A stretch of 52,605 nucleotides of DNA from an uncultured Nitrososphaerales archaeon (GCA_963709405.1 CAVPXM010000016.1:1-52605), one strand, 5' to 3'. Shown: positions 6,900-32,663, counted from the stretch's first letter. Program-made: numbers and translations. The notes: generated by a model from the letters alone, not told the origin.

Positions 6900-6915
6900 C
6901 TGCATTGCAATGCAG
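6900..6915. promoter_or_regulatory. Perfect 16-bp palindrome, putative transcription-factor site
   Basis: CTGCATTGCAATGCAG midway between two divergent CBS genes, just upstream of a TATA-like AATATATTAT. Confidence 0.6.
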
Positions 6916-6960
6916 ACATCGACAATATATTATTGTTACGCGAAGCCTTTTTGACAACAA

Positions 6961-7587
6961 ATGTATTCGAATTCATTATCCCAGAAGGCTGGCGACTTGA
7001 TTGAAACAAATTTTGCTACTCTACACGAGAACGCTAATGTTGTCGATGCAATTCGATTGATGAATGATAAGAATACATCTTCTATTATTGTCAAATTCAA
7101 AGATTCGGAAGAACCAATAGGTATAGTTACTGAAAGAGATATACTATATCGTGCCGTGGCCGAAAGTAAGGATCCGTCGAAAACCACATTAAAGGAAATA
7201 ATGAGTTCACCAATCCTTACGATCAATAAAGAGGTATTAGTAAAGGAGGCAATATCTATAATGAGAAAGGAAGGAATAAGGAGATTGGTTGTGGTAACAG
7301 ATAAAAATAAATTCGAAGAAACAAACCTATCTTTGCCTACCGACGAAAAAGGTAAAACAACCATACTCGGGGTTTTAACATTAATGTCAATTATTGGAGA
7401 ATCATCTAATCAAAGTATAAATTTGGTAGATATTGACATACCAGATTCTATAATTGCCTTGAAAAATATTGTAATCGTTTGTCCCTATTGCGAATCAAAA
7501 TTTGATAATAAAGCCGATTTGTCAAAACATATCGATAGAATTCATATCGGGGCCGGCCTACTTGAAGGAAATATGAGACAATGGTAA
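6961..7587 (+). CDS. CBS-pair protein with C-terminal C2H2 zinc finger
   Basis: PIGIVTERDIL, IMSSPILTI, GIRRLVVV; CPYC-x12-HIDRIH. Confidence 0.9.
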   Translation: MYSNSLSQKAGDLIETNFATLHENANVVDAIRLMNDKNTSSIIVKFKDSEEPIGIVTERDILYRAVAESKDPSKTTLKEIMSSPILTINKEVLVKEAISIMRKEGIRRLVVVTDKNKFEETNLSLPTDEKGKTTILGVLTLMSIIGESSNQSINLVDIDIPDSIIALKNIVIVCPYCESKFDNKADLSKHIDRIHIGAGLLEGNMRQW

Positions 7588-7713
7588 TAGTTGGTGTCAT
7601 TATAATGTGCGAGCCATCATCCGCTTGAATATTTGTAATATCTTCTATAAACAGCAATCAAGTTCGTTATCTGAACGAGTTTCATTTCTCTTAATTCAGG
7701 TTATTTTTGGTAT

Positions 7714-8622
7714 ATGATATATGATACAAACAATGCTTCATTGAAATCCATACTCTCTATTTCGATTGAAAATGCCTTTCCTGACATTTTCAAAAGGCCT
7801 CCTCTATTTGCTAACGAAAACATGCGATTGATGCAAGCAGCTTCGTTCTTCGCAATTGGACCTCAGATCTATGTAGATGGTTTATTGGTAGTACGAAATG
7901 AGAAGGGAGGAGAAGTAAAAATTATGGGAAGGATTAGTAGTAAACATATAATTCAATCTATACTTCACGCTGGCTATTCTAAATATTTAGGAATAAAATT
8001 ACACCAGATAATGGACAAGAATACACCATTTATTGAAACAAATTCACTTCTTGATGCGGCATTATGCATATTCCAAAAAACAAGATTTGCATTAATTCCA
8101 GTTACTCGAGGAGGAGCGGCAGTTATAGCGACTCTTACTATAAGGGATTTTTTACCACTCATTGTTAAGGCTCATATAGAAGCATCGATAAAGATGGTAT
8201 CCTCACCTCTGGTTTCAGTAACTAGAGATACTAATATGAGAGAAGCCCTAGATATAATGATCACAAGGAATATTAGAAATATAGGGATAGTAGATCATTG
8301 CAAAGGTAGTAAGGAGGATAGGAAAGATTCCAACTTACAATTAATTGGAATTATTAGTGATAGAAACATATTGGAATTTCTTTTGAGCACTAAGGGGAAA
8401 GAAACTATGGCTGAAAAGAGCAGTATGGAATTACAAGATATTGATATAGTCAACGCCTTCGATGTATCAGCCAAGCTGAGATTAGTTCATCCTGACGTTG
8501 GCATAAGTAAGGCAGCTGAGGTCTTGATGGACCTCAGTAATCCGTACATTGTCCTTGAAAGAGAAAATATGATAGTTACTCCATGGGATATAGTTATGAA
8601 AACCTTTGGTCTTGCATTATAA
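7714..8622 (+). CDS. Multi-CBS-domain protein
   Basis: VSSPLVSV..ALDIMITRNIRNIGIV, IGIISDRNIL, IVTPWDIV. Confidence 0.85.
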   Translation: MIYDTNNASLKSILSISIENAFPDIFKRPPLFANENMRLMQAASFFAIGPQIYVDGLLVVRNEKGGEVKIMGRISSKHIIQSILHAGYSKYLGIKLHQIMDKNTPFIETNSLLDAALCIFQKTRFALIPVTRGGAAVIATLTIRDFLPLIVKAHIEASIKMVSSPLVSVTRDTNMREALDIMITRNIRNIGIVDHCKGSKEDRKDSNLQLIGIISDRNILEFLLSTKGKETMAEKSSMELQDIDIVNAFDVSAKLRLVHPDVGISKAAEVLMDLSNPYIVLERENMIVTPWDIVMKTFGLAL

Positions 8623-9313
8623 GACACTTGGAAGGGCTGATTTTTCCTAATTTTACTCTCAGTCATAACTGTTGATTGCTTCGTAGGCCTTATAGTATTG
8701 CTGAGATGATGTGATGACTAATTAGCTTATTATCTTATTAGAGACAGGGAATAATGAGATTATAATTTTTCGGATGACTACTGTATTCCTGACTGCTTTG
8801 TAATGCAAAGCAGTCATCCAACTTAAATATTATATATCGCACCAATATTTCACCTACAATCCAAGATTGCAGCCTGTAATTATGTAATAATTATCAGATG
8901 CATTTTTGTGAACCAGTGTCGTACTTGGTAAGACAATGTGCTCTCAAAATCTGGTAAATATAACAAAAGCAGGCTGCATATTCTCATTTCTTAGGCAACG
9001 CATTGTAATTCAGACGAATTTATAAAAATGTAATGATATCCATAATCTTCTATTATCACACATTTCAAATTGATATGCTTATATTTGTCTACCATCACTA
9101 GACCTATTCACATTATTATATACTTACATTATATCCTGTGGTAAAACATGAATTCTAGTTATAGGTATTTGTCGGATTCTGTATTTCTTTTGAATGGCGA
9201 TTGTTTGCAATAAGAACAAGCCGTCCAGTTAATTTAAATATGTTCTTATTTCATTGAATGGCACTGAATTCATACTGTTTAATAGCCAGCATTTAATTCG
9301 AACAACACCTTAG

Positions 9314-10732
9314 ATGAGTATTAACAAAAAGGATAGCACCGATCATGCTAGGTATGAATTTAGATATACTGATAAATATGATATATTTTCAACCAAAAAA
9401 GGCCTCTGTGTAGAAACTATTGAAGAGATGAGCCAGTCAAGAAGAGAGCCTTACTGGCTAAGAGAGTTTAGGTTGAGATCCTATGATGTCTTCATCAACA
9501 AATCAATACCAAATACGGTTTGTGATCCATTAAAAATAGATTTTCAAAATATCTATTATTCTGCGGCGTTTGAAAAGGAAGACATAAAATTGGACTATGG
9601 TGGGTTCTCTACGGATAAGTCTCAGGTTCCTATAATTACACAAAGAGAACGAGAGTCATTTATTGAGACAGATACTCAAAATGACACTGAGGCAGTTTGC
9701 CATCATTTGAGCGAAAAACTTCAGAAGATGGGTGTAATATTTGTCGACATGGATACTGCGATAAAAAACTATCCCGAACTTTTCGAAAAACATTTTGGAA
9801 GGGTAATTCCACCTGAAGATAACAAGATCGCTGCATTAAATGGAGCTATCTGGTCGAGTGGTTCATTTATGTACGTTCCTCCTGACGTAAAAGTTAGCTT
9901 TCCAGTATATTCGAATTATAGAATTAATATGGAAAATACTGATCAGTTTGAAAGGAATCTTATAATTGCAGATGAAGGATCAGAAGTTCATTATATCGAA
10001 GTATGTCCTTCACGAGCTTACACTCGTACCGTAGGATCGTTGCGTTCTCTAGCTACAGAATTAATTGCAAAAAAATGTGCTAAGATTAGATACACTGCTA
10101 TCCAGAACTGGAGGAAAGATGTCTATAATCTGGTAGCAAAGAGGGCATATGTATACGAGAATGCAACGGTTGAATGGATAGATGGAAGCCTTGGGAGCAA
10201 GCTTACCATGGAGTGCCCAAGCATATATTTGCTTGGAAGAAATGCTATTGCAAAAATAGTATCATTAGCTTTTGCTGGTCCCGGTCAGCATCAAGATGTT
10301 GGTGCAAAAGCAGTACATTTAGCCCCGGATACTACATCTAAGATTGCAACTAAATCTATCAGCAAATCAGACGGAAGAACTACATTTAAAGGCTTATTAC
10401 ATATCGGTAAGGGTTCTATACACGCAAAAGCAGATATTCAATTTGATGCTCTCATTTTAGATGAAAATTCAGGAATTAACGTTTATCCATGTATTGAAGT
10501 TAATGAAGAGAATAGCATTAGCTCTTATGAATCTGTTATTAGAAAAGTCGGTACAGATCAAATGTTTTATCTTATGAGTAGAGGATATTCGGAATCTGAT
10601 GCACTTTCGATGATTGTGACCGGATTCATAGAGTCATTTATGAAGGAATTGCCAGTGGAATGTGCAGTTGAGCTAAGCAGATTTATTAGGCTAGAATTGG
10701 AAGGGAAATCCAGCAGCATTAAAGCTGACTGA
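9314..10732 (+). CDS. sufB: Divergent SufB-like Fe-S assembly protein (lone paralog)
   Basis: EPYWLREFRL, IPPEDNKIAALNGAIWSSGSFMYVP, QFERNLIIADEGSEVHYIE, GQHQDVGAK, FYLMSRG. Confidence 0.85.
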   Translation: MSINKKDSTDHARYEFRYTDKYDIFSTKKGLCVETIEEMSQSRREPYWLREFRLRSYDVFINKSIPNTVCDPLKIDFQNIYYSAAFEKEDIKLDYGGFSTDKSQVPIITQRERESFIETDTQNDTEAVCHHLSEKLQKMGVIFVDMDTAIKNYPELFEKHFGRVIPPEDNKIAALNGAIWSSGSFMYVPPDVKVSFPVYSNYRINMENTDQFERNLIIADEGSEVHYIEVCPSRAYTRTVGSLRSLATELIAKKCAKIRYTAIQNWRKDVYNLVAKRAYVYENATVEWIDGSLGSKLTMECPSIYLLGRNAIAKIVSLAFAGPGQHQDVGAKAVHLAPDTTSKIATKSISKSDGRTTFKGLLHIGKGSIHAKADIQFDALILDENSGINVYPCIEVNEENSISSYESVIRKVGTDQMFYLMSRGYSESDALSMIVTGFIESFMKELPVECAVELSRFIRLELEGKSSSIKAD

Positions 10733-11199
10733 ATCTATTTGTTGAAATATCAAGATGTTAGGTAGAATTGAGAAACGACTATGAAGCTAAGAATAATAAT
10801 AACTAGAATTTCTGAAATCTATAAGTTCCAAAGACACAAAAAATTCAAACTATTTGACTTGTGATATAACACTTCCTCGAAATTTTTGTCTATATAATCT
10901 ATGTATAAAGAAAGATCAATCCTATATGTATCAACTAAAAGATCAATCCATGATTTTTCCTCAATGCCACTACCGAGTAGATATTCTTTCCTCAATTCCT
11001 GTATAGTACTCAATAATAGTGGTCGTACCAAGGATAAAATGGACAGTAATTGTTTTTCTATCCTACTCTTCGTTTTAGAACCACATTTATGACATGCAAT
11101 GTCCTATGTTCTTGTCCATATCCCATACAATAATGCCTTTAGGAGACTAATATTCATACATCGAAGGGGAACTAAAAATTTACCATGGAAAGAAAAAGA

Positions 11200-11400: not shown

Positions 11401-11652
11401 CTCACCACTGCAAATAGCAGCACTAACTTTATAATTAGCGAATATGTTGTTCATATTATTCTTGATTGATTTTGGGAAGCTATTTAGAGTAGCTATGCCA
11501 AAAATTTAATCTGAATATATATTCTTTATATTTACTTGATTACCATGATGCTACTCATTCATGTCTTTTGCAGATTCTAAAATAGACAAACCCAAGTCAG
11601 TTAATTTAACCTTGCTATCTAAGAAGTTATAAAAATAATAGTCCCTGCAACC

Positions 11653-13432: not shown

Positions 13433-13843
13433 CTATTTTGCAATAACTACTGTACACTTAGCGTTGTGAACAATCTTATACGATGTACTCCCTAACAGAA
13501 ATTCCTGTAACTCATGAGGTCCTCTTCTTCCGATTACTATTGTATCAACTCCTTTAGCATCGGCCAATTGCAAGATTTGGGCAGCAGCACTAATTCCTCG
13601 AAGCTCTATTGTAGTTATAGAAGCTAGTCCTAACTTTTCAGCCCTCCTGCGATATATTTCTAAGAGCTCTTTACCCCGTCGTTCCAATTCCTTCGAAATT
13701 GAATATCCAACATTACTAAATTCTTCAAGCACGTTAACGATTAGTAAATTCGATTCACATCTGGAAGCAAGGAAAATTGCATATTCGAAGGCCTTATCGG
13801 CATATTGAGAACCATCAATCCCAACTAAAATCTTTGACAACAT
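13433..13843 (-). CDS. Universal stress protein
   Basis: KILVGIDGS, DTIVIGRRG..LLGSTSYKIVHNAKCTVVIAK. Confidence 0.95.
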   Translation of the reverse strand: MLSKILVGIDGSQYADKAFEYAIFLASRCESNLLIVNVLEEFSNVGYSISKELERRGKELLEIYRRRAEKLGLASITTIELRGISAAAQILQLADAKGVDTIVIGRRGPHELQEFLLGSTSYKIVHNAKCTVVIAK

Positions 13844-14552: not shown

Positions 14553-16891
14553 TTACAATACTCCGCCTCCACCTTCACCGCGTCTCATAGCCCCTACTGT
14601 AGGTGTTGGCCTACCAAACTGTTCAGCTATTCTCTTATACCAATTTAATTCTTGATTTGATAGCGGTCTAATCTTTTTCATCGCTTCTTCAAAGTGTCTC
14701 ATATATAGCTTCATCTCCTTTGAATGTTTTTTTGCTTCGATAGGATCTTGATACTTTGCTATGTGTTCTCGTAAAGCGAGCATTACGGCTGCCGCTGCAA
14801 ATGAAGCAATATCGGCTCCAGTATATCCTTCTGTAATGTCTGCTAAGTGCAGTATATTAACATCTTCTGCTAGCGGTGTTTTCTGGCTATGGATTTTAAT
14901 TATTTGAAATCTTGAGTCACGATCAGGAGGAGCAACATAAAGTACCCTGTCGAATCTTCCTGGTCTCAATAAAGCAGGATCTACTATGTCAGGTCTGTTT
15001 GATGCCGCTATAACAACTACACCTCTCAATTCTTCTAGACCATCAAGTTCTGTCAATAATTGGCTGATTACTCTTTCAGTGACATGAGAATCTCCAAAGT
15101 CTCCTCCCCTCACCGGTGCTATGGCATCAATTTCATCAAAGAATACAAGGCAAGGGGCAGCTTGTCTTGCCTTTCTGAACACTTCTCGAACGCCCTTCTC
15201 TGATTCTCCAACCCATTTTGAAAGTAGTTCGGGTCCCTTTATACTAATGAAGTTGGCCTGACTTTCGCTTGCTACGGCCTTTGCTAGCAATGTTTTACCT
15301 GTACCCGGCGGCCCATAAAGAAAGATGCCCTTTGGTGGAATCGCACTAGCTTCTGAAAACAATTCTCTATATTTTAATGGCCATTCTAGTGCCTCAATTA
15401 ATTCTTGTTTAATATCGTCAAGTCCTCCGACATCTCTCCAGCTTACGTTGGGAATTTCTACAAAAACCTCTCTCATTGCAGATGGTTCCATTTCATTTAT
15501 TACTTCCATAAAGTCTTCCATCGTAACGTTTATCTTGTTCAAAATCTGAACTGGAATGCTTTCTTCCGAAAGGTCTATCTCCGGTAGCACCCGTCTCAGT
15601 GCACGCATAGCTCGCCTCCTTCGTTAATGCTTGTAAATCGGCTCCAACAAATCCATGAGATATGTCTGCTAATTTTTCAATATTGACATCACGAGCTAAG
15701 GGCATATGGCGAGTATGAATGTGCAATATCTCCAATCTACCATTTCTATCTGGGACACCTAGCTCTATTTCTCTGTCAAACCTTCCGGGGCGCCTTAATG
15801 CTGGATCTATTGCATTCACTCTGTTTGTTGCACCGATGATCACCACCTTACCTAGTGATGATAGACCATCCATCAAAGACAAAAGTTGAGATACGACTCG
15901 TCTTTCAACCTCTCCTGTTACCTCTTCTCTCTTGGGGGCTATGGAATCTAGTTCATCAATAAATATTATCGAAGGAGCGTTTTGGTCTGCCCGTTGAAAT
16001 ATTTCTCTCAAATGTGCTTCGCTTTCACCGTAGAATTTGCTCATTATTTCTGGTCCGCTTATTGCGAAAAAGTTTGCATTAGTTTCGTTTGCAATAGCCT
16101 TGGCAAGTAATGTCTTACCAGTACCTGGAGCACCATGAAGTAATACACCTTTAGGAGCTTCAACTCCTAACCTTTTGAACAACTCAGGATGGCGTAAAGG
16201 GAGCTCAATAATCTCTCTTATTTTCGTAATCTCATCCTTAACTCCTCCAACATCCTCATAAGTGACAGACAGAAGTCCTTCCTGTTTGGATAAACCTTTC
16301 GCTATCTCCTCAGATACGACTATCCGTGTAGAGTTTGTAATTATGAGAGATCCTTTTGGTGGATTAGTTGAAACTACCATCAAATCAACTCTCTGTCCCA
16401 TTATGCCCAGCGGGACAATATCACCCTTCGTTACAATCTGGCCTTGCAGCACCGCGGCCAGATATTCTTCTGCTCCCACGATTCTCAGTGGCTCTGTAGG
16501 AGCAAGAGTAATACTCTTAGCATTTTTTGCTTCTGCCTTTCTAATTTCTACCTTGTCGTCAATACCTACATAAAGTCTATTTCTTATGTAGCCGTCTAAT
16601 CGTATCAATCCTTTGCCATAATCTTGTTCGTATGCAGGCCAGTTAAGAACGGAAGTTTTTGATTTTTCTGAACTAATCTCTATGACATCACCAGCCGAAA
16701 GACCTAATTCTTCTGAAATCTTTGGATCGATCCTTGCAACTCTTCTCCCAACATCCTTAGAATTAGCTTCAGCGACCTTTAAGCTAGTTTTCTCAGTTGT
16801 ACTATCATCACCGTTACTAGCGCTTCTCTTATCACCTGGAGTGTTAACGCCGCCGGTATTATTACTTCCCGTGCTTTGTTGCGCGATTCAT
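14553..16891 (-). CDS. cdc48: CDC48/VAT-family AAA+ ATPase, two apparent 1-bp insertions (~16887 and 15613)
   Basis: N-domain [19 protein letters not shown]; two AAA modules ([13 protein letters not shown]; [13 protein letters not shown]; RPGRFDR); removing the two extra bases restores a single ORF. Confidence 0.9.
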
Positions 16892-16918
16892 TATGTTGTA
16901 AGTGATATTTATTTGACC

Positions 16919-17872
16919 ACTCTGCATTTAGCTACCCAATAATAATTATTCTGGCATGATTGACTGGCCTTCGTATAATCATTCATTAGTAAGACGTGGC
17001 CAAGTACTCTTAGATTTTGATGTACTTGATGGATGGGATCATGAATTATCTCAAATGAATCTTGGTAAGGTTGGTGAACCTTACGACTATCCAGATTCCT
17101 TTATTAAGATCCTAGGTTACATGAGAGCTTATTTTCATCTACCATATAGACAGACAGAGGGCGTAGTTATAGCACATGCAAGTACAAAGGTTCCAGGTAT
17201 ACCACATTATAGTACTATTAGTAGACGCATAAACAGGCTAGAGATCAAAATCAATGAAAAATTAGGAAATGATATTGTCATTGCTATAGACAGTACCGGT
17301 ATTAAAGTAGCTAATCGAGGTGAATGGATGCGGCATAAATGGCATGTTAGGAAAGGATATCTAAAGATACATGTAGCAGTTGACATCAAGAAGAAGAAAA
17401 GAATCCTGTCTTTGGAGGTAACTAGTGAAGAGGTACATGATGGTAGGATGCTAAGCAAGCTAGTAGACAATGCTTCTGAGAATAATCATGTGAAGGGCAT
17501 GTTAGCAGATGGTATGTACGACAGCAATAACAATTTTAGATACCTGTCAAAGAACCATATTAAACCAGGTATAAAGACAAGAAGTAATTCCAAGGTAAGG
17601 TCAACTAACTGTCATGCTAGGAATATGTCTGTAGTAAAACAACAAGCAAATCTCAAAAGATGGAAGCGTAGCGTGAGCTATGGACACAGGTGGATGGCAG
17701 AAACAGCATTCTCTTCAATTAAAAGAATGTTTGGTGAACATGTAACAGCTAGAAAATTTCCTAATATGGTAAAGGAAATCTTCCTAAAGGCAACTCTGTA
17801 TAACATGTTCAATCGAATGACCTAACTAACGGCTTGCATAACCTAAAATCCTAATGAATCATGCAACAGAGC
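16919..17872 (+). mobile_element. IS5-family (IS903-like) insertion sequence
   Basis: Intact transposase; right end ATGCAACAGAGC; left end is an eroded match (ACTCTGCAT), so that boundary is approximate. Confidence 0.75.
16956..17825 (+). CDS. IS5-family transposase
   Basis: DWPSYNHSLVRRG, LPYRQTEG, IDSTGIK, ADGMYD, YGHRWMAETAFS. Confidence 0.92.
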   Translation: MIDWPSYNHSLVRRGQVLLDFDVLDGWDHELSQMNLGKVGEPYDYPDSFIKILGYMRAYFHLPYRQTEGVVIAHASTKVPGIPHYSTISRRINRLEIKINEKLGNDIVIAIDSTGIKVANRGEWMRHKWHVRKGYLKIHVAVDIKKKKRILSLEVTSEEVHDGRMLSKLVDNASENNHVKGMLADGMYDSNNNFRYLSKNHIKPGIKTRSNSKVRSTNCHARNMSVVKQQANLKRWKRSVSYGHRWMAETAFSSIKRMFGEHVTARKFPNMVKEIFLKATLYNMFNRMT

Positions 17873-18013
17873 AACTTCCCGCATTCAAACTACAGATTCT
17901 AATCGCAGAATGATTCATAAGAATTATGGACGCAGCGCATTGCACAAATCACTAACAAGATAAGTTCACGTTTTATCTCAAATTTGGTGCTATTATAAAG
18001 TGATATATCGTTA

Positions 18014-19110
18014 ATGGTTCTAAAACAAATGACTTTTAGAACTGTATGATTCTCTAGGTGTGTTTCGCAACAAGAAAGTGGGAGAATTAATGGAATCTCC
18101 TATTATGACAGATATGGACAGTCCAATCTCAAACATAATAGGAATTTTAATTGAAAACAATGCCTATGAAGTATTCATCAAGCTGGCTAGCAACTCCATT
18201 GCTAGTATAAAAATACTAGGAGATGATTCTTATCTTATCCCAAGAGAGTAATATAGGGCATGCTGCAAGAATAATGAGTCATTATAGATTAAGGGCACTT
18301 CCGGTAGTACAAAATGACGAAATCGTAGGACAGATTACTGCGAAAGCACTTGTAAGAGCAATTTATGAGGCTGACATTAGTGGTAGTAGGAGTAGCCATG
18401 CTGCTAATGCTTCAAAGATTATGACACCAAGCACTGTCGTAATAGGGACTAAGGACAGAGTTTCAAACGCTAAATGCACAAGATGAAATGCAGAATCGAT
18501 CACCTCCCAGCTGTAGACGACCAAGAAAATAACTAGTAGAATGTTAACATCAACTAATATTACACAAGTGATGCATCCATCAGAAAAGATAGGGGCATTT
18601 AAGATCATAATCATGATAATATTGCAACATCGAATGTAGATGATAATTTGCGTTCAGTAATTGATTTGATGGTAGATTTGAACACCACTTGTTTAGTCGT
18701 GAAGGCGTTAGATGAAGTTCGAGGAATAATCACATGGAGACATAGTTGCATTATTAGGAGAACTTAGTCAAGAACAAGATATACCAGCTTTCATCACTGG
18801 GCTATCAGATGATCCGCCTGATTCAGAGCTAACAAAATCAAAATTTATCAGCATTATCAGACTGTTAAAAATTTCTCCAGAAATAGAAGTCATATTCCAT
18901 ATAAAAATAAAAGATATAGAAGAAGAAAGAAGAAGATATGAAGTAGATGTGAATATAAGAACACCTTTCAGGAGAATATATATACAAACCCGGCATGAGA
19001 TCCGGCGACTGTGTTTGACCAGGTGATTCATAGCCCCAAAGAAGTTGGCGCACAGGCCATTCGGTAGACAAAAAGAATCAATGAGACATATGGATGACAA
19101 AACTATGTAA
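18014..19110 (+). pseudogene. CBS-module + C-terminal HPF/RaiA-like protein (archaeal hibernation-factor type), degenerate
   Basis: Frame-broken CBS repeats (AARIMSHYRLRALPVV..IVGQIT) then DIPAFITGL..KSKF..HIKIKDIEEERRRYEVDVNI..; many lesions. Confidence 0.65.
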
Positions 19111-19300: not shown

Positions 19301-19460
19301 TTATCTATCATCTCTACTAAAAGCCTCTCCTAGATCTCTAGCAGTAATCATCGCCGCAAGTCTTCCTTCCTTCTTTAGAGGCAGCCTTTTTATATTGTTG
19401 AATACTACTGTCCTCGCAGCATCATTGGTATGTGTCTCGATTGGAGCTGGAATGAATAGG
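19301..19460 (-). pseudogene. CBS-domain remnant
   Basis: NDAARTVVFNNIKRLPLKKEGRLAAMITARDLGEAF*. Confidence 0.7.
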
Positions 19461-19524
19461 TGAAGTGCATTGCAGAAAGTTCTTTCTTATTAAATACACA
19501 ATGTCAGAAATCAAATTATAGAAT

Positions 19525-20871
19525 ATGAACCTTTTTACACATCTAGAAATTATACCAAAATTGATGCAGTCATATGTCATCGGTTTTCAATTAAATTCTA
19601 TCTATAATTCAATTTATTTTACGGCTTTACGTGAAATATATAATACGAGTAATGGCAACATAATAACAAAAAAATCGCCGGAAACTTTCTATGACGAATG
19701 GCTTAAAATTTCTGATAAGGAGTTAGATAACAAATTAAAATCTAGTAGCTTCACCTCATTATTATCTCAATACGTCAATTTGCTTGTTGAATTACGTACA
19801 ATTTTAAGAGAAGGAGGTTATCCGGTGTATTATATTGGTTGGTTGTTTGATTCTTTTGTCAGAAATATTATGGTATTTGCATCGATAGAAAAGGATTTTG
19901 ATCTTACTCCTTTTGATATAATGTCTGTAAAGGGAAAGACTCGAGTACTGCATTACCACAAAGACATCAACAACTACGCTGATAGTAGCAAAGACAAAGA
20001 GACCAGACATCCGCTATTATTAATTTACGCTCCTATCAATCGCTTCCACATTCTGGATATAAGCCAAGATAGAAGTGTAGTTAGAAGGCTATTATCTAAA
20101 GGATTAGATGTTTACTTGCTGGATTGGGGATATCCAACTTGGGAAGATTCTAGTCTATCTCTAAATGATTATGTTAATTATGTGAAAGATGCTGTTCAAG
20201 ATATCAAGGAGAAAACTGGCACAGATAAAGTATCTATTCTAGGATATTGTTGGGGAGGAATACCTGCACTCATTTATGCAGCTTTGAATAATGAAAATCT
20301 CCGAAGTTTAACACTTATGGCTGCTCCGGTAGATTTTAGCAAAGATAGCACTATACTTGCAAATTGGTCGAAAGTTATTGATTCTAACAAAATTGTAGAT
20401 GAGTTTGGACATGTAGATGGACAGGTTCTAGATATTAGTTTTCTAATGCGTAATCCTCCACGATATACCTTTGATAAATATCTGAATCTATTCAAAAAGT
20501 CTAATGATACGCAATTTGTTGATAACTTTATTTCAGTCGAAAAATGGTTATATGATACTCCTATAATACCTGGTAATCTTTATCGACAGATCCTCAATGA
20601 TTGCTACAAGAACAACTTGCTTATTTCAAATGAACTGAAAGTTGATGAAAATATAATTGACCTAAAGAAGATAACTGCACCATTACTAACAATTGTTGCT
20701 GAAAATGATGACTTGGTTTCTCCTGAATCAACGTTAGCAATAAGAGATTATGTATCCAGCAAGGACATTGCCTCTCTTACAATTCCTGGAGGTCATATAG
20801 GATTATGTATTAGCACAAAAGCACACGAAAAGTTATGGCCAGAAGCAGTAAAATGGATTATGTCAAAATGA
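19525..20871 (+). CDS. phaC: Class III polyhydroxyalkanoate synthase with PhaE-like N-terminal extension
   Basis: PLLLIYAPINRFHILD, DVYLLDWG, lipase box GYCWGG, AENDDLV (Asp), GGHIG (His). Confidence 0.88.
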   Translation: MNLFTHLEIIPKLMQSYVIGFQLNSIYNSIYFTALREIYNTSNGNIITKKSPETFYDEWLKISDKELDNKLKSSSFTSLLSQYVNLLVELRTILREGGYPVYYIGWLFDSFVRNIMVFASIEKDFDLTPFDIMSVKGKTRVLHYHKDINNYADSSKDKETRHPLLLIYAPINRFHILDISQDRSVVRRLLSKGLDVYLLDWGYPTWEDSSLSLNDYVNYVKDAVQDIKEKTGTDKVSILGYCWGGIPALIYAALNNENLRSLTLMAAPVDFSKDSTILANWSKVIDSNKIVDEFGHVDGQVLDISFLMRNPPRYTFDKYLNLFKKSNDTQFVDNFISVEKWLYDTPIIPGNLYRQILNDCYKNNLLISNELKVDENIIDLKKITAPLLTIVAENDDLVSPESTLAIRDYVSSKDIASLTIPGGHIGLCISTKAHEKLWPEAVKWIMSK

Positions 20872-21754: not shown

Positions 21755-22630
21755 CTAATTATCCACGGCCAATCTCTTTACAATATCAGTTTTCGTTATT
21801 ATACCCACAAGTATATTATCTGAATCTACAACTGGAATACCGCTTATTCTATTTCTTACCATTATATGGGCAGCTTCGGCTAAATCAGAATCACTTGTGA
21901 TAGTTACTGGGTCATACTTCATTACATCCCTTGCTAAAAATATTGCTTTAATGCCAGATGGTATAAAAATCTGTTCTCTTCTGCGCGCTCCCACTGGCTC
22001 CTGTATATCCCAATGTTGTCCATATATTCCAGTCCCAAATAATAAACTAATGGGTAACAAATCGCGTCCTGTGATAATGCCAACTGGCTTTCGATTCCTT
22101 GTCACAACGACTCTGGATATTCTATTGTCAGTCATTAGCATAAGGGTCATATGTATAGGTTCATCAGGAGCCACTGTCAATACTTTTTTTGTCATGTATT
22201 GTTCCACTAAATCTTCGACTAATTTTCTTTGTGCATAATGCATTGCATATGAGTCTACTAAATCACTCTTAGTTACTATTCCGTTGAGGAGGCCATTGTC
22301 ATCAAGAACAAGTATCGAGCTAATCTTGTGTTCTAGCATTAACTTTGCACAAGACTTCAAATTCTGCTCTGTATTGACTGTTATAAGATCTTTGCTCATT
22401 ACTTCGTCTAATCTGATCTCCTTGAGTTGTCTGTGTTGCGATTCAGTGTATAATACTCGCGAAATATCCTTCTCCGTAACTATTCCTAGAGCCTTGTTAT
22501 CCCTAGCAACTACTATCCTACTAATATTATACCTGAGTAAAGTATTGCGAGCATCAAAAAGAGTTTTTTCTGGTTCCAGTGTAATGGCTCTATTACTTAC
22601 TTCTGTTATCTTTAATCGCGTATAGTTCAA
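21755..22630 (-). CDS. Four-CBS-domain protein
   Basis: Four repeats ending GIVTEKDI, GIVTKSDL, GIITGRDL, GIITKTDI. Confidence 0.93.
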   Translation of the reverse strand: MNYTRLKITEVSNRAITLEPEKTLFDARNTLLRYNISRIVVARDNKALGIVTEKDISRVLYTESQHRQLKEIRLDEVMSKDLITVNTEQNLKSCAKLMLEHKISSILVLDDNGLLNGIVTKSDLVDSYAMHYAQRKLVEDLVEQYMTKKVLTVAPDEPIHMTLMLMTDNRISRVVVTRNRKPVGIITGRDLLPISLLFGTGIYGQHWDIQEPVGARRREQIFIPSGIKAIFLARDVMKYDPVTITSDSDLAEAAHIMVRNRISGIPVVDSDNILVGIITKTDIVKRLAVDN

Positions 22631-23479
22631 TGTATGTTTGATTCTGCCTCCTCCTTATATGTTCAATTGATCAGCAGTTTTATATATGAAGAATTTGTTT
22701 TTCGCTTCCTTGCAGTGTACCAGAAAATTCAAACTTGTTCTCATATATCGACTGGTCACCATAAAGTTTATCATAGCAATAGTGAATGCATTTATAATAT
22801 TTTTCAGAAGACAAATTATCAGCTGAGTTGATAAATCCTGAAACTCATTGCTAATATCTTAATTATCAATCAATTCATCAATTTAAAGCAAACCTGATCG
22901 CATTGTCAGCCAGCCACCAGAACTTTAGACTATTGAACCATCGAATAGCTTTCTTTTAGCTAACCATTATGTCTGTACTATTAAACAGGATCCTGGCATG
23001 ATTTTAGCAAATCGTTAATTGAACTTGGATGTGTCAAGACCCCAAGTCAGAGCTTTATCAGCCACGCGATATATAGATACTATTTCAAGACATGGAATAA
23101 ATACTGCATAATTCGCATTATATTACAACTTCAACGTCGGCTTGATAATCGATGATTTTATCTGGGGTAGTAGCATTTGATCGATTTAATAATCACGTTA
23201 ATTAAAGAATGAAAGAAATTGATATAGTATCTACTTGCCGTTTATTAGGAGCAAGTAAAACCATATATAAACTGCATAAACTGGATAATAAAAGACTATG
23301 TGTGTCATTAATTTATAGTGCATTTATTGTCTAATGATAAAATCAGGATGATGTTGTTGATAATCGAGTCAACTGTATGAAACAACAATGGAAATCAGTT
23401 TAAGACATTTTGATATAATAACAAAACGACCACGTAGCTATAAAGAGAGGATATTTTTTAATAACGAACCAGATATAGA

Positions 23480-23674: not shown

Positions 23675-23680
23675 GGAAAA

Positions 23681-24805: not shown

Positions 24806-25438
24806 CTACCAAGACGTTATAATATCATTTGTATTCATAATCTTTGCACCATAAAATCGTCTAATATATTCTAAACCTGAATTGTGTTCTTCTTCTGTAA
24901 ATGCATCCACTCCATCATCGGGCACTATTAATTCAAATCCCCTAACAAATGCATCGTACGATGTATGTCTGTCACAGATATTGGTGTGTAGGCCTGTTAT
25001 GACTAACGTATCAGCACCCTTGCCATTATAAATTCCTTTAAGGGCTTTATCCAATCCTGTTCCGTTAAATGCGCTATACGTTCTCTTGGTAATAATATAA
25101 TCTGTGTCTGACGGTTTTAGTTCATCTATTACTTTAGCTCCTTCAGTATGTTTCATGGCATGAGGACCCCATAGATTCATCTCATAAGTGTCAATCGGAA
25201 GATGCTCATCAATGCAATAAAAAACTGGTATCTGTTTTTGTCTTGCAGTATCAAGCAGGATCTTTATATTTGGTATTATTCGACCAGCTCTTTCACATTT
25301 AAGTTTGCCTTTGACGAAATCATTTTGCATATCAATTACTAAAATTGCATACCTATGCTGCTTCCTATCTTCAGATTTATTTCCAAAACCCATCTCAGCT
25401 GTCTCTTTCGTAAGATCTTTTTCTACTTCGTTCGCCAA
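24806..25438 (-). CDS. pncA: Isochorismatase-family cysteine hydrolase, nicotinamidase-like
   Basis: IDMQNDF, DEH..WGPHA, KRTYSAF, GLHTNICD; adjacent to NAPRTase. Confidence 0.75.
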   Translation of the reverse strand: MANEVEKDLTKETAEMGFGNKSEDRKQHRYAILVIDMQNDFVKGKLKCERAGRIIPNIKILLDTARQKQIPVFYCIDEHLPIDTYEMNLWGPHAMKHTEGAKVIDELKPSDTDYIITKRTYSAFNGTGLDKALKGIYNGKGADTLVITGLHTNICDRHTSYDAFVRGFELIVPDDGVDAFTEEEHNSGLEYIRRFYGAKIMNTNDIITSW

Positions 25439-25864: not shown

Positions 25865-27284
25865 TTAGTCAGGTCTGAAATGCTGAGTTATTGCCTTCAG
25901 CTTTTTGCTAAATGTTATTGGAAATCTTTCTGGCAGAAATTCTAAACTCTTAAACTTTGTGGGAAGTAAATTTAGTTGCTGTATATGATATCTTTGAATC
26001 TCTACAATTGAGGGCAGTTTACGCAAAAGCTTTCCTTTATCAAATAATTTTACCAATAACGGAACTCCTGGACCATCAAGAATCTCCTTTTCCCCCTCTA
26101 ATGCCAGAATATCTTTTTTTATTTTATCATTTTTTATAATCCTAAGTATTTGTTTAGGGCCAGGATAAGTTTTCTTTCCTGAGCTAGTTTTCATCTTATA
26201 TAATATTTTATCATGAATGCTCTTTTTCTTACCTATTTCTGAAACCTGATGTAATTTTACAGCAACTAATTTATATACCCCATTCATGACCGGATCATCT
26301 CTTGATGTGCTAAGCTCAGTTCCGACTCCGAAAGAATCTATAGGAGCATGCATATCAATGAGATCACTTATCACATATTCATTTAAATCTCCTGTTGCCA
26401 TGATCTTGGTCCGGGTATGGCCAGCATTATCAAGCAATCTTCTGGATTCTGTACCTATTTGAACTAGGTCTCCGCTATCTAACCTTATACCATATATATC
26501 AATTCCTAAGTTGATTATTTTTTTTACTGCAGCAATACTATCATAAGTGTCAACTAACAAGAAGCCAGTAGGGAATACTTTACTGAACTGATTAAATGCG
26601 TCCTCTTCTCGTTCAAAACTCATGACAAATGAATGAGCCATTGTACCAAATACCGGTATCCCTAGCTTATATCCGGCAAGTGCATTTGAAGTTCCGACGC
26701 ATCCTCCTATATAGGCGAGCTCTAGCAGCCAAAAGTCCCGCTTGCGGTCCGTGAGCTCGCCTAGAACCAAATTCTACGACGGGTTTTCTTCTCGCTGCGG
26801 TAACTATTCTTGATGCTTTAGTTGCTATTAGACTTTCGAAGTTTATGATCGATAGGATATATGTTTCAACTATTTGTGCTTCAATCATAGGTGCTTCTAT
26901 CCTTATGATTGGTTCATTAGGGAAAAGAATTGTTCCTTCAGGAACTGCCCAAACAGTACCTGTAAATTTAAATCCCTTTAAATATTCAAAAAAATCTTGC
27001 TCAACGTATTTGAATGTTTCAAGAGATTTGAGATAAGAGATTTGCTTATCATTAAACTTCATCTTCATTAGGAAATGTATGGCTTGTTCGAGACCAGCAA
27101 CCACAAGATATGATCTGTTCGCCGGTAGCCTTCTGATAAACATTTCAAAAATTCCCTTCTTTTTTATACTCTTCTCGTTACGACTAGAGTGATAGTATGC
27201 AGCAGCCATAGTTAGTTCATATAAATCAGTGGCTAGCGCAATATCTCCTCCATGATCTGACTCTGAGATTAACAGTCCTTCCAA
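25865..27284 (-). CDS. pncB: Nicotinate phosphoribosyltransferase, one apparent 1-bp insertion at 26717
   Basis: TDLYELTM, EFGSRRAHG, GTMAHSFV, LVDTYD, GIRLDSGD, FGVGT, GVYKLV across ORFs 26667-27284 and 25865-26770. Confidence 0.92.
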
Positions 27285-28349: not shown

Positions 28350-28595
28350 CTACTTTTCAATATTCTTCATATGAAGAATACCTCTATCCGTTGTGGTATA
28401 GATGTGTTGTAGTTCATCATAATGTAATAATCTCTTATCTATTAGCTCTGCAAAACATCTTCGCAATTGTGCATGTGATATAGAGGGTAATCTATCTATT
28501 ATTCCTCTTTTCGTGATCCCGTTTTTAGACACCTCGAGTATATCTAGGAGAACTGTTGTACTGGTATCGGTGTTCTTTGTTGATGCATTTGTCAT
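28350..28595 (-). CDS. Small winged-helix DNA-binding protein (HTH_45/COG3432-like)
   Basis: DILEVSKNGITK..ISHAQLRRCFAELIDKRLL..YTTTDRG. Confidence 0.8.
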   Translation of the reverse strand: MTNASTKNTDTSTTVLLDILEVSKNGITKRGIIDRLPSISHAQLRRCFAELIDKRLLHYDELQHIYTTTDRGILHMKNIEK

Positions 28596-28789
28596 TACCT
28601 TAATAATTCACCAATCTTTATTAGCATAACGAAATCTATAAACCAATTGTTTTCAACGTAATGCACTGCATCTGTTATTATGAGAATTATTAGTGAATAA
28701 CAATATGCTTCTGTAAAGAATGTGAAATGGGATTATTATAGGTAATAGTCTAAAGCTCTTCTATTATTTTTTAATTCGATATGCTCTTT

Positions 28790-29097
28790 ACTGGATTGCA
28801 GTTCTACCAAGATTTACTTTATCACACAAAATGAATTAGATCTCCTCTACCAAAACGTATATCGACGACTACTTCACCTTTCCGGATATGCGCAAACTTT
28901 ACCGTGCACCACAACCCACTCCGAGAATAGAGAATTTGGATAGAATTCAAATCATCGACATCATAACCAATATATTTCACAATTTGAAGCGATGACATCA
29001 TTGAACTGTCACTATTACTGCCACCATCGCAGCATTAGGTAGGCACATCACAACTTCTGAAGGAATTTTCAACTAATGTAATCTTTTCATATCTCTC
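28790..29097 (-). pseudogene. Arsenite-methyltransferase-like N-terminal remnant
   Basis: Frame-broken IGYDVDDLNSI..ILGVGCGA..KFAHIRKGEVVVD. Confidence 0.6.
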
Positions 29098-29607
29098 ATT
29101 TACTTTCCATTTAATTACATTTCTTTCAATTATTCTCATCTTATTTATCTACTGAATAGCCCACTATTGTTTCCTTTCCAAGTTTCTTCCTTAACTTAAC
29201 AGCAACTTCATCAGGTAGTTTAGAAGGCCCTTCTCTTAGGCCTATTCTCCAGTCAATACCTCCTTTACGATATCATGAAAGCCACAAAGTTCACATTCTG
29301 CTTCTGTGTAGCTCCTTTGCAATATATGTTGGGGGATCCGTTATCACTCTCAACTTAGAGCACAAGTCGTAATCTGGCATGAGATTCCTTCCTACAGAGC
29401 CTCTAATTCTCCTCTACTTACCAAGATTCAAAAGAGCAGATCAATGAACAAAGCTATATCTCTTCCTGTACAAAATATGACAATTTCATCAATAACAAGT
29501 AACTTATTTGTCTTAATTGATGGAAGTATCCCTTATTCAAGTTATGATTTATGAAGAGTGTGACTCTAGGACACAGGGTAACTAATATCATTCCAAATAA
29601 ATATACC

Positions 29608-30829
29608 ATGGCCAAACGCACAGGATTATGGACAGGAGTCAATAAAAACGAGCTACAAGATATCACTTGGATTATTTGAGCTTGTTAGTTTAGGTATTGG
29701 AGGTACAATTGGCTCAGGAATATTCATTGTTCCTGGCATCGTAGCCGGAATTGCTGGACCAAGTTCAATATTTGCCTGGCTCTTTGCTTTAGCATCTGCA
29801 TCATGCGTAGCGTACGCACTAGCAAAAGCTTCTTATAAGTATCCCTCAACTGGTGCATTCTATTCTATCTTTTCAATAGTATTTAGCAAGAAAATTTCAT
29901 TGATACTCGTCTTTTTATACCTCATCTCGGTAGTAGTTGGAATTGCCGCAATTGCAGACGGAATAGGACAATACTTCTCTTTTTTTGGATTTCAACATGA
30001 TCCTTTTGTCATCCTATTAGTTGAGATTATTGCGATTTTAGGCTTCTGTGCAATTAACATAAAAGGAGTACTTTTATCAGGAAAGACTGAAAATGTATTG
30101 ACAATAGCCAAGATCGCACCTCTAATTATCTTGGCCATTCTTCTAGTTCCTTATATTCATGAAAGTAATTTTTCCCCCTTTTATCCATCTTCAAGAAGTA
30201 CTGATTTTCTAAAAGCTTTGGTGATTGTTTACTTTCCTTTTACAGGTTTTGAAATAAGTGCTATACCAGCCCAAGAGACAAGAACTGCAGAAAAAATAGT
30301 ATATAGAGCGATGAGAATGACAATGATTATTGTAGGATTTGTATATATATTTTTGAACATTTCACTAATTGGCGCTACTGGTAGCAAAGTCCTTGCGAAC
30401 TCTCCGGCTCCTCTAGCTACGGCATCAGGATTGATCTCTAAAGAATCGCAAAGTATAACCGTTATAATTGGAATTATTGCAATGTTATCTGCAGTAAATG
30501 CATACATGCTGGCAGCAGCGAGAGTACTACAAAATGTTTCCTCTTTATTTAATTTACGTACCTTAAGAGAATTATCCTCAAGCGGCACTCCTGCTATTGC
30601 TACAATACTGGTCACATTAGCAGCTTGTACTTTAGTACTATTTCTGTCGCACAATTTTGAACAACTGGCCAGTATCTCTGTCATAGCGATATTAGTAGTT
30701 TATATTTTCGTCTGCGTGTGTGCATACAAAATTTTTTTAAACGATACTACTACAAGACTCATTGCATGTATAGGTGTGCTATTAACATCCACAATTCTTG
30801 TCGTTTACTTTCTCTTGAAAATTCAATAG
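29608..30829 (+). CDS. APC-family amino acid permease, 5' frameshift near 29660
   Basis: LGLFELVSLGIGGTIGSGIFIVPG, YPSTGAFY, FTGFE in frame with ORF 29900-30829; the ATG at 29608 is one base out of frame. Confidence 0.85.
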
Positions 30830-31723
30830 CCTACCATTATTACTAAATAGCACAAACTTGCACAAATTAATAAATTCGGTGTATCCGGAATCCAGTTAAT
30901 CTGGCTGATTTATAATGGCATATCGACTTAATTTAACTGGATAATATGCCGTTCTGTTTAAACGATTCTTTACGCCACAGTAACTAGTAAGAGCAGCTTT
31001 GATTCTGATTTCAATAACATATACATAATGTGAAATGTGCATTCAGGGAACATTTCTTTGAAACTATTTGGTCTTATATAATATTGCTATTCATGATATC
31101 GATTGAGAGAACTTGAGATAATACTGATAATGGTTCCTGTTATGGCAAATATGATTGAGTCCCAGCATTTAAGAACCAGCCTATAAATAGCATTCATATC
31201 CCACTTAGGAATGAATCACTGGTTCTTATTAAAAATCAAATGCCTTAAATTCGTACGATATAGATATGGTTATTCCAACTTTAAGTACTATGTCTTTTGT
31301 AACCTTATCGTAATCTTTTCCTCAATGCAGCATGATAGTCTGCCGACATCTGAAGGAAGGCTGGTAGGAGATCAAATGTACCAAGTATCATGTTTATGAA
31401 AACAATGTAATATGGAATATCGGTGGTGTTTTAGTATCATGATAGAAGATCTATGGTAGTAAGAGGGATAGTGAATTGATTTACAAGTCCACCAAAATAG
31501 TGTGAAAATGCCAAAGAGTACAAAATTCATTAACTGACCTGCAAATGATATCTTAACTTCTTTCCTAATCCATGTAGGTATATTAAGGCCGAACTGAGAC
31601 TGCAGAAACCAAATTCGCGTTTCTTAACGATGCATTGCAAATCCGACCAGTACATTGTAATGATTTCAGCCTTAATACGTATAGTGTATAGTGCATTTCA
31701 TAAGCAAAATAAAACATTAGTGG

Positions 31724-32206
31724 CTATCTAACAAGCAAGACAGAACAATGAGCATGCTGGACTACACCATTTGCCACACTTCCAGTCAAGAATCTTTTCA
31801 GTCCAGTTCTTCCTCTTGTTCCAATAACTATTAGATCTATATCCTTGTCAGTAGCATAGTCTATAATAGATCCTATAATAGATTTTACATCCGTGAAAGT
31901 CTCAGTGTTTAACTCTGCAATATCTTCATTCCTTGCCATATCCCTCACTTTCTTAAACCAAGATTGAGCTTTCTCTTCTAGATCTTTAAAGTACTGATCT
32001 ATTGCAGGCGGAGAACTTGTATACCCGTAGGGTACACTACCTATAACATGAATACAAAATAGCCGTGCATTCTCGTCCTTTGCAAGCTTTATTGCATACT
32101 TAGCCGCATTTAAGGAGCATTCTGAGCCATCTATTGGAACAAGTATGTTTCTTATCTGTATTTTACAATTATTATGATTAGCTGTCGGTCTTACATCTAC
32201 TACCAC
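31724..32206 (-). CDS. Universal stress protein
   Basis: NILVPIDGS, DLIVIGTRGRTGLKRFLTGSVANGVVQHAHCSVLLVR. Confidence 0.95.
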   Translation of the reverse strand: MVVDVRPTANHNNCKIQIRNILVPIDGSECSLNAAKYAIKLAKDENARLFCIHVIGSVPYGYTSSPPAIDQYFKDLEEKAQSWFKKVRDMARNEDIAELNTETFTDVKSIIGSIIDYATDKDIDLIVIGTRGRTGLKRFLTGSVANGVVQHAHCSVLLVR

Positions 32207-32663
32207 ATTGATTTAGTATCTCGATATCATGATAAATCTATTGTAGATGTTTATATGGCTAATGTTCAGTATGTCTATATGTCATGTACAATGTCTTGCA
32301 TAATATTCCAGTATTTCAGTGGGCCAGAAGTTCCTCTTTTAATGTTTCCAAAATCGATTCCATTTAGTTAACACGCAAAGATAAGCAGCAATACATAGAC
32401 CGTATAAATGAGCAACTAACTGGACTTTAATACTATCAAGCATATTTATAAAGTTGTTATATGTTTTGGGAAAACCGAACCTAATTATTGTTTATAGCTA
32501 GAGAACTAATATTAATAGTAGTCCAGATAATCGTTAATGATGATTAATTATTATCTCCAATTTTTCACATATTGCAGGTTCAACTATAGTAAAGGTATGA
32601 TATTATATGCACTGCCATGCACTATGATCCAAAATGTAATATACTGTCAACCGTATTACTCGG

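Follow-up and report, generated by a model that had tools for sequence, protein, structure and literature searches.

The window examined in this work, a stretch of 52,605 nucleotides from an uncultured Nitrososphaerales archaeon that corresponds to contig C16 of a 4.83-Mb assembly (37% GC, 91% complete), contains repeated copies of a 25-bp palindrome composed of four TGCA units (the box), which stands directly upstream of TATA-like elements in intergenic DNA. Based on its position and on the genes that follow it, it appears moderately probable that the box is the operator of a single activator that switches on a normally silent stress and dormancy regulon when oxygen is limiting; this regulon would include genes for universal stress proteins (USP), CBS proteins, Hsp20, Cdc48, PhaC, SnoaL, HibA-like proteins and multicopper oxidases (MCO). 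A preliminary description of this DNA had reported a shared 12-bp palindrome upstream of the genes of an island. All ten strings that it quoted are present at the positions given and the palindrome is indeed shared, although the 12-mer is a sub-palindrome of the longer element.

The element was defined with an iterated matrix built from 421 sites of other genomes, with the own genome held out, and reads GWW-TGCA-S-TGCA-W-TGCA-S-TGCA-WWC, with the dyad axis between the second and third TGCA. Neighbouring units are separated by 1 bp and alternate units by 6 bp, which gives a period of 5 bp, and the inner two units are the best kept, with 0.32 and 0.35 mismatches each compared with 1.02 and 0.85 in the outer ones. 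Bidirectional sites were trained in both orientations, a procedure that favours symmetry; the flanking C and G had already been seen in the oriented fit. At one or both ends a TATA-like box follows after about 8 nt. In 82 of 137 promoters the start codon falls 35-44 nt beyond the last TGCA, suggesting that the transcripts are mostly leaderless.

The shared signal exceeds chance in the window, where TGCAnTGCAnTGCA with up to 2 mismatches occurs eight times vs 1.92 ± 1.47 in shuffled sequences, with none of 100 shuffles reaching eight. Genome-wide, nine exact copies were found in non-coding and none in coding DNA (2.08 vs 2.75 Mb), and with up to 1 mismatch the figures were 35 and 1, respectively. 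Copies of TGCAnTGCAnTGCA in the own genome peak 30-60 nt ahead of gene starts; permuted controls showed no comparable peak, and TGCA units spaced by 2 or 3 nt as well as permuted tetramers displayed neither non-coding nor positional bias in this genome. An order-4 Markov null produced 3 matches at 14 bits vs 38 observed, and in the held-out own genome a box-only matrix devoid of TATA columns gave 39 non-coding and 6 coding matches. In 30 of these 39 non-coding cases an all-A/T hexamer starts 6-10 nt past the box, compared with 2877 of 9611 positions in the background (P 2e-9), in agreement with the proposed location upstream of TATA-like boxes; 7 of the 39, vs 274 of the 9611, have such a hexamer at either end. 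The idea that the motif simply reflects how common TGCA is, or that it marks the terminus of a repeat of the miniature inverted-repeat transposable element (MITE) or repetitive extragenic palindrome (REP) type, can be regarded as refuted. It is suggested by the 22,098 copies of TGCA in the own genome, by the richness of this genome in insertion sequence (IS) elements and by the chance level of three places in the preliminary description; it is contradicted by the spacing, permutation and Markov controls, by flanks that differ from site to site, by a position relative to TATA and start that is fixed across families, and by the lack of MITE/REP-like conservation beyond the motif.

The sites of the window, scored with the 25-bp box matrix trained on other genomes only, are as follows (strand in brackets where assigned).

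6893..6917: strongest box, 27.0 bits for the box only, 99.9th percentile of 3334 upstream regions, both strands.
8791..8815 (+): box, 24.6 bits, followed by a TATA-like run and then by no open reading frame (ORF) that could be found.
9247..9271: box, 17.3 bits, 45 nt before sufB.
17928..17952: bidirectional box, 14.4 bits, between cdc48 and the HibA-like gene.
19458..19482 (+): box, 13.9 bits for the box only and 21.2 with TATA, 45 nt before the PhaC-like gene.
28649..28673 (-): box, 16.2 bits, 56 nt before the winged-helix gene.
32284..32308 (-): weak box, 9.3 bits, 98.9th percentile, 80 nt before a USP gene.
32605..32629 (+): box, 21.8 bits, 40 nt before a CBS gene.
51337..51361 (-): box, 15.0 bits, outside the range of the preliminary description.

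Thus, among the nine places originally listed, five are strong (6900, 17932, 19462, 28658 and 32607/32617) and one is weak (32288), whereas 8995 (0.9 bits), 22712 (4.7) and 31627/31647 (1.6 and -4.5) are at background level. The tandem ATGCACT at 32607 and 32617 is one single box, and 31647 occupies the position where the TATA of 31627 would fall. Conversely, the boxes at 8791-8815, 9247-9271 and 51337-51361, all strong, had been overlooked. The distances to gene starts, put at about 45-95 bp, are 46 and 43 nt on the two strands for 6900, 45 nt for 19462, 56 nt for 28658, 80 nt for 32288, 40 nt for 32607 and, to the likely cdc48 start cut off by an IS5 element, 42 nt for 17932; behind 8995, 31627 and 31647 no gene start was found at such a distance. 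The strongest box is bidirectional, with the TATA-like AATATATT at 6924-6931 on the plus strand and another A/T run on the minus strand. Independent DNA runs span the boxes at 6893 and 8791, and the TGCA cores are unchanged among the 40 of 68 differences listed. The box at 8791-8815, with no ORF behind it, is compatible with a lost gene as well as with a small RNA, and one contig of the X6 run skips 8807-8929. Sites resembling that at 51337-51361 precede TerC-like genes on contigs C75 and C76.

The proposal of a regulon box for the island is supported as regards a regulon box upstream of TATA and is too narrow as regards the island: of the 43 non-coding sites that reach 15 bits in the own genome, only 7 lie within 6.8-33.3 kb. 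These seven nevertheless represent a strong concentration, with 0.18 expected from the remaining non-coding genome. On other contigs, boxes precede genes for Hsp20, a second PhaC-like protein, two MCOs, a phosphoribosyltransferase (PRTase), a flavodoxin-like protein, two CoA transferases, a receiver domain and further CBS and USP proteins. Three strong boxes of the own genome (G000) with near-identical contexts (C5:25873, C77:14798 and C46:11700) stand before very short, unannotated ORFs that share a GIDGSAGRIYVP-like stretch.

The box is not peculiar to this genome. Of 41 relatives, 16 have perfect cores and 2 match the reversed control; the own family is positive in 14 of 24 cases, other families in 1 of 16. 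Among 161 genomes of the order, 82 match the combination of box and TATA and 10 the reversed control. By family, it reaches 32/43 in f1 and 36/44 in f13, 1/33 in f10 and 0/8 in f12; lone matches to the two-mismatch pattern include chance ones, as seen when 25 loci were re-scored. In a complete relative (G019), 13 of 13 perfect cores and 22 of 31 cores with up to one mismatch fall within about 30 kb (the perfect ones within 29 kb), with almost every intergenic region containing one, in a cluster encoding USP, CBS, Hsp20, PhaC, MCO, PII, thermosome, PAC2, alcohol dehydrogenase (ADH), VIT1, a permease, hemerythrin and ferredoxin. A GTDB-wide scan with a gap of 7-9 nt before WAWAT retrieved at least 117 loci, in places several per genome. 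With a gap of 8, 70 of 71 loci among the matches listed are titled Nitrososphaeria or Thermoproteota (Nitrososphaera, Nitrososphaeraceae, Nitrosopolaris, Nitrosopumilus, Nitrosotenuis, Nitrosopelagicus, higher ranks and, in 4 cases, Thermoproteota), vs only 3 of 46 among those listed with a gap of 7 or 9. The off-gap matches listed include eleven Acetatifactor records with a gap of 9 (e.g., L134, L145, L172 and L197) and five Chitinophagaceae records with a gap of 7 (e.g., L130 and L138), which probably represent one conserved stretch per lineage. Judging from the record titles, the gap-8 box is restricted to ammonia-oxidising archaea, apart from one locus among the matches listed.

The genes associated with the box are recurrent. 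The 52 long-flank loci among the matches listed contain USP genes in 35 cases, genes for a ribbon-helix-helix (RHH) protein in 21, for a CBS pair with a finger (CBS-finger) in 21, CBS-pair genes in 20, SnoaL in 17, ADH in 13, Hsp20 and VIT1 in 12 each and MCO in 8. The box is located directly upstream of 21/30 SnoaL, 19/35 CBS-finger and 10/19 Hsp20 genes; for RHH and VIT1 genes the figures are 1/39 and 0/16. A minimal module was observed in marine genomes (L319:9200-10733 of G139, as well as L323, L325, L326 and L328), consisting of a secreted cupredoxin/MCO-like gene divergent from the box, an HTH_20 gene and an RHH gene.

Published expression data for related organisms are consistent with a regulon that is silent under ordinary growth. 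A cluster whose gene content matches that of the box clusters, NVIE_003860-004170, is present in Nitrososphaera viennensis (PMC13674081). In biofilm, 19 of the 27 genes listed from this cluster show a log2 fold change (log2FC) of at least 2, starting from 3-71 transcripts per million (TPM) in the controls, and Hsp20 reaches +6.2, while all eight genes flanking the cluster upstream remain between -1.25 and +0.28 (PMC12448741). The RHH gene is flat (+0.33, about 93 TPM; PMC12448741), in agreement with the scarcity of boxes directly upstream of RHH genes; NVIE_003970, the likely SnoaL neighbour, fits less well, rising only by +0.98 in biofilm (PMC12448741). The accessible main text of that paper contains no mention of USP, CBS, Hsp20 or these locus tags (PMC12448741). 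In two thaumarchaeal symbionts of sponges exposed to in-situ hypoxia nearly all changed genes were upregulated, among them those for UspA, HSP20, CBS, PII, MDH, Lrp/AsnC and regulators (10.1101/2023.02.27.530229), and the induced families are also present in box-bearing loci. Based on this evidence, we lean slightly towards low oxygen, or the nitric oxide (NO) or redox state that accompanies it, as the predicted signal.

Several observations weigh against oxygen as the signal. The likeness of N. viennensis and the sponge symbionts to the box regulon lies in gene content alone, and oxygen is not the only factor that distinguishes biofilm from liquid culture. The symbionts responded little in anoxia vs normoxia (10.1101/2023.02.27.530229); UspA, CBS, Hsp20 and Cdc48 proteins of Nitrosopumilus maritimus increase at 32 C (PMC12974425); and the USP/CBS genes of the latter organism are mostly uninduced in biofilm (14 rows, maximum +1.3). 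It is quite unlikely, all the same, that a genuine box responds to heat or to general proteotoxic or energy stress rather than to oxygen. Such a signal would accommodate the genes for Hsp20, Cdc48, thermosome and PAC2 behind or among the boxes as well as the CBS modules, which bind adenylates, together with the proteins that N. maritimus makes at 32 C. On the other hand, six N. viennensis cluster genes changed by at most +1.1 under Cu limitation and were flat or down under 3,4-dimethylpyrazole phosphate (DMPP) and allylthiourea (ATU) in published data, i.e., inhibitors of ammonia monooxygenase (AMO), which the authors regard as a signal of energy limitation, failed to induce them; furthermore, hypoxia induced the same families in situ (10.1101/2023.02.27.530229) and the gene content matches that of a bacterial low-oxygen locus, lxa (PMC3721108).

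With respect to the mechanism, the 5-bp period of the four TGCA units would produce two interleaved pairs 10 bp apart, so that two protein pairs could bind opposite faces of the DNA. The bound protein may then recruit transcription factor B (TFB) to a weak, purine-poor TFB recognition element (BRE) on one or both sides, giving transcripts that would be mostly leaderless and often divergent. The BRE zone of box promoters contains 2.6 purines of 7 vs 3.8 in other promoters (76 vs 376 promoters), a comparison that is partly circular, because the TATAs are predicted and the matrix columns overlap the BRE. We predict with reasonable, if limited, confidence that the binder acts as an activator; that it acts as a repressor is possible, though we incline against it. 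Most known RHH proteins are repressors. In its specific form, in which RHH or another protein covers the edge of the BRE in the same regulon and blocks TFB until the signal arrives, the repressor operator seems unlikely. It is true that the box abuts the BRE zone and that CopG, an RHH repressor, binds TGCA units cooperatively (PMC2724298). In addition, the USP/CBS/Hsp20 rows listed for Nitrosocosmicus franklandianus are expressed in controls (34-545 TPM) and uninduced, the outcome that loss of an operator would give, and the at least 117 GTDB matches listed include no record titled Nitrosocosmicus. However, exact spacing (the 70 of 71 loci at gap 8), a purine-poor BRE and bidirectional symmetry are needed for recruitment and not for occlusion, and a box 5' of BRE/TATA occupies the position tied to activation for OxsR (10.1101/2022.03.05.483106).

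As to the protein that binds the box, the cluster's RHH protein with its sensor-fold domain is the predicted candidate, an assignment that we make tentatively and that falls a little short of probable. This protein of 200 aa (NVIE_003980 in N. viennensis, C1:1599182-1599784 in G019), arCOG08805-like by position and annotation, is the sole regulator-like gene common to soil and marine box clusters and the commonest one near boxes among the 52 loci. Its predicted structure (predicted local distance difference test, pLDDT, 75; Foldseek E 3.6e-4 to 6bdd) combines an RHH domain (Z 4.5-4.7 to RHH domains) with a C-terminal, sensor-like domain of 135 residues that matches the H-NOX/V4R/TRAPP fold at Z 6-9. 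The match to 1xbn has Z 7.5 with a root-mean-square deviation of 3.5 over 124 residues, and BcsD (9.0), TRAPP (7.7) and VirS (7.5) score equally or higher. Heme binding by H-NOX involves a proximal His and a YxSxR motif; across 16 sequences the C-terminal domain has invariant His at 145, 153 and 159 and no visible YxSxR. The sensor-regulator would be made constitutively from its own promoter, its H-NOX/V4R/TRAPP-fold domain perceiving the signal; by eye, only TATA-like boxes and no second shared motif were seen upstream of RHH genes, with no motif finder run. Searches of the ESM Atlas returned no named family for either regulator candidate. The strict box pattern occurs in 59 of 68 RHH-positive vs 23 of 93 RHH-negative genomes. 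Three further RHH-positive genomes have softer boxes beside the RHH gene, G133 has a divergent RHH gene with a box, G179 has a broken RHH gene, and the complete marine genomes G049, G118 and G174 lack RHH, none of their pattern matches being a convincing box. An RHH dimer of CopG is known to read TGCA (PMC2724298).

This candidate faces a number of difficulties. RHH and box co-occur in part because both share one island, and related genomes are not independent either. Fold Z scores under 8 can reflect a common arrangement alone. In the genus g2, RHH with the same recognition strand is present in 8 of 8 genomes, of which 6 have no box match and 2 have one. Moreover, no RHH orthologue was found in the own genome, G018 and G022 despite true boxes, all three being fragmented assemblies, and the DNA contigs over 4000-10000 reach no RHH gene past the neighbouring IS630 element.

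A small winged-helix protein, either of the marine ArsR/HTH_20 clade or an unlinked core factor lost in g2, is a possible binder that we regard as somewhat improbable; this alternative bears on the identity of the binder alone and overlaps with the regulon proposed here. An HTH_20 gene lies directly behind the best box of marine and f4 genomes in 14 of 14 rows vs 0 of 44 other homologues (IQ-TREE tree of 58 rows, none omitted), and it stays beside the box where RHH is 46-70 kb away (G098 and G142). DtxR/IdeR proteins, too, bind as two dimers that are offset by 5 bp and face each other across the DNA. On the contrary, no member of the clade was found in the f1 genomes searched, the family richest in boxes, for which reason it was rejected as the general regulator, and the other winged-helix families of the island are patchy and show no detectable kinship to it. 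Among these, wHTH24 was discarded, being present in 11 of 41 genomes only, a remnant in the window, and not found in the box-bearing G002, G013, G017 and G036. Likewise, the HTH_45 gene of the window has close homologues only in the loci of G001, G004 and G020 and a fusion in G017, and the HTH_45 and TrmB families have too many paralogues to be profiled.

A further component of the regulon may act on the ribosome. HibA consists of four CBS domains followed by an HPF/RaiA-like domain (PMC13324472), and CBS proteins with a weakly HPF/RaiA-like C-terminal domain are encoded at 18014-18975 of the window, at C22:22735-24006 of the own genome (L072:436-1707), at L049:11795-12937 and at L085:3503-4594; of these, the C22 copy is intact, with a box lying 49 nt before it. 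Their C-termini match PF02482 at E 0.0013-0.0071, below the cut-off, in 3 of 3 cases, and PDB matches include HPF/RaiA in 14 of 22 at E 0.01-1, with unrelated chains first. These proteins are listed as candidate HibA-like ribosome hibernation factors in or near box clusters.

The cluster of the window (6.7-33.2 kb) contains six CBS genes and one CBS/HPF-like gene, two USP genes, sufB, cdc48, a PhaC-like gene, genes for an APH-like protein, PncA/PncB-like proteins and an amino-acid permease, and a small winged-helix gene, and is interrupted by IS elements. It shares 79-86% DNA identity in blocks with that of G004 and, by this comparison, is a fragmented copy of a conserved cluster; the GC content of the window (35.9% vs 37.3% in the genome) is ordinary. 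Judging from its genes and from the records that share the motif, the window would belong to a soil ammonia oxidiser of the Nitrososphaeraceae. Genes were called with a simple ORF scorer, and start positions are approximate.

About 5500-6670: IS630 element.
6685..6852 (-): CBS gene remnant (CBS E 1.8e-4), divergent from the 6893 box and truncated beside IS630.
6961..7587 (+): gene for a CBS pair with a C2H2-like finger, starting 46 nt beyond the core.
7714..8622 (+): CBS protein gene with no box of its own.
9314..10732 (+): SufB gene (TIGR01980, 473.6 bits vs a cut-off of 346.4).
13433..13843 (-): USP gene with no convincing box (88th percentile).
14553..16871 (-): body of the cdc48 AAA+ ATPase gene, with a frameshift near 15.5-15.6 kb and its first codons past IS5.
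16872..17873 (+): IS5-family element within the 5' end of cdc48.
18014..18975 (+): gene for a CBS + HPF-like protein, frameshifted, start approximate; tblastn against the intact copy on C22 gives E 3e-28.
19525..20871 (+): class III PhaC-like gene (NCBIfam 320.6, below the cut-off of 365.3).
21755..22648 (-): four-CBS protein gene; its upstream site 22712 is a decayed box at most.
23681-24697 (+): gene with an APH-like kinase fold, no box.
24806-25438 (-): isochorismatase/nicotinamidase-like gene, no box.
25865-27284 (-): nicotinate phosphoribosyltransferase gene in two frames, no box.
28350..28595 (-): small HTH_45/Sso10a-like winged-helix gene.
31724..32206 (-): USP gene.
32667..33197 (+): CBS-pair protein gene.

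The CBS gene at 7714..8622 probably shares a transcript with that at 6961..7587. The likely TTG start of cdc48, as read from the sequence, is at 17888(-), 42 nt from the core of the 17928 box, and the IS5-family element, which sits in the first codons and is flanked by a short target duplication, has cut cdc48 off from the box promoter. Frameshifts affect cluster genes at 15493-15608, 26667-26770, 18014-18975 and 29630-29900. The HTH_45/Sso10a-like gene would be a member of the regulon and only a candidate for a regulatory role; in G017 (L079:10676-11788) such a winged helix is fused to a four-CBS protein, which in the window is encoded separately (28350-28595 and 21755-22648), and the pair could possibly form an adenylate-sensing secondary regulator. 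The segment 11560-11646 (-) is what remains of a member of a winged-helix-like family that is linked to the island and specific to Nitrososphaerota; the family has 735 homologues and no match in Pfam, and an intact copy is present at C73:50764-51132 of the own genome. Outside the cluster, a tyrosine integrase-like gene (46393-47670, +) has a weak box-like site upstream at 46315 (14 bits). RNA runs contain just 0.11-0.22 of the words from 5400-9400.

Ammonia-oxidising archaea, which drive nitrification in soil and ocean, strictly require oxygen and also persist in niches where it is scarce, and almost no regulons have been defined in them. What their numerous USP and CBS genes do has been termed largely unknown (PMC12974425). 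The box, together with its gene list and a named candidate regulator, makes this question directly testable in cultured strains, and box-driven transcripts could mark oxygen-limited or dormant nitrifiers in the field. If the RHH activator does sense NO, it would respond to an intermediate of the ammonia oxidisers' own metabolism. That they possess a DosR/lxa-like hypoxia-dormancy regulon of their own, the first defined in the phylum, with a one-component RHH activator that senses O2 or NO through its H-NOX-like domain and with a ribosome hibernation factor among its members, is a rather improbable version of this proposal.

Among known systems, the closest in content is the lxa locus of Burkholderia cenocepacia, which, like the box clusters, groups normally silent genes for USPs, Hsp20, a Zn-dependent ADH, a polyhydroxyalkanoate (PHA) synthase, a nitroreductase and an ATP-dependent protease, with one motif at many intergenic points and with satellite loci (PMC3721108). 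The lxa motif, TGA-N6-TCA, is Anr/Fnr-like and bacterial, whereas here a TGCA box with a period of 5 stands at archaeal TATA promoters (PMC3721108). Among the 55 proteins of the G019 island there is no match to the Crp/Fnr family. Since the box is a 25-bp TGCA repeat and not TGA-N6-TCA, the system would be lxa-like in its working and is not a member of lxa.

The DosR regulon of Mycobacterium tuberculosis is under two-component control (DosR/DosS/DosT) and has a box that differs from the TGCA box. PncB, a PRTase, an APH-like kinase and a hibernation factor may be further parallels between the two. No DosR-type response regulator with a DNA-binding domain was seen among the island proteins, with no search aimed at DosR orthologues. 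USPs, alpha-crystallin, a CBS-pair protein and a nitroreductase occur in both gene sets, and the DosR regulon is induced by hypoxia and NO (PMC3721108, PMC2442614); the accessible portion of the second source does not contain Rv2004c, Rv0573c or Rv0571c.

As an archaeal upstream site, the box is a palindrome located directly 5' of BRE/TATA at a fixed spacing. Upstream activating sites are known in archaea for Ptr2 and TFB-RF1. OxsR of Haloferax volcanii also recognizes a palindrome directly 5' of BRE/TATA in stress promoters; its site is CG-rich, in contrast to the four-unit symmetric TGCA box, which serves divergent promoters (10.1101/2022.03.05.483106). CopG/Arc operators share with the box the self-palindromic TGCA unit, read by an RHH dimer, with four dimers acting cooperatively (PMC2724298). 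The CopG units are 5 bp apart, in a 13-bp element on one face, over the -35 box for repression (PMC2724298), whereas those of the box are 1 bp apart, with a distance of 10 bp between alternate units, and lie upstream of the core promoter; moreover, the candidate RHH protein has an additional sensor-like domain of 135 residues. The cargo of thaumarchaeal integrated elements comprises the same families (UspA in 16 elements, CBS in 13, arCOG08805 RHH in 9, MCO in 9 and hemerythrin in 8); that survey, in its accessible main text, reports no regulatory motif or regulon, and the word 'motif' appears 0 times (PMC6563490, Krupovic et al.). Promoter motifs have also been described in ammonia-oxidising archaea at -35 to -70 in Cu-limited N. 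viennensis (PMC7785015, Reyes et al.); neither of the two consensus sequences is related to the TGCA box, and the genes concerned are different. A description of the 25-bp TGCA element was not found in the literature searched, a search beyond whose reach most subscription papers lie; PMC5847659 and 10.1101/175141 contributed nothing about the box either. New here are the definition of the box as a 25-bp element, checked on a held-out genome, the control with a gap of 8 in the GTDB scan, the module of marine genomes, the parallels in expression, the predicted fold of the RHH protein and the genomes at odds with that candidate. The element is real, and the archaeal upstream site and the lxa/DosR-like regulon are of known kinds.

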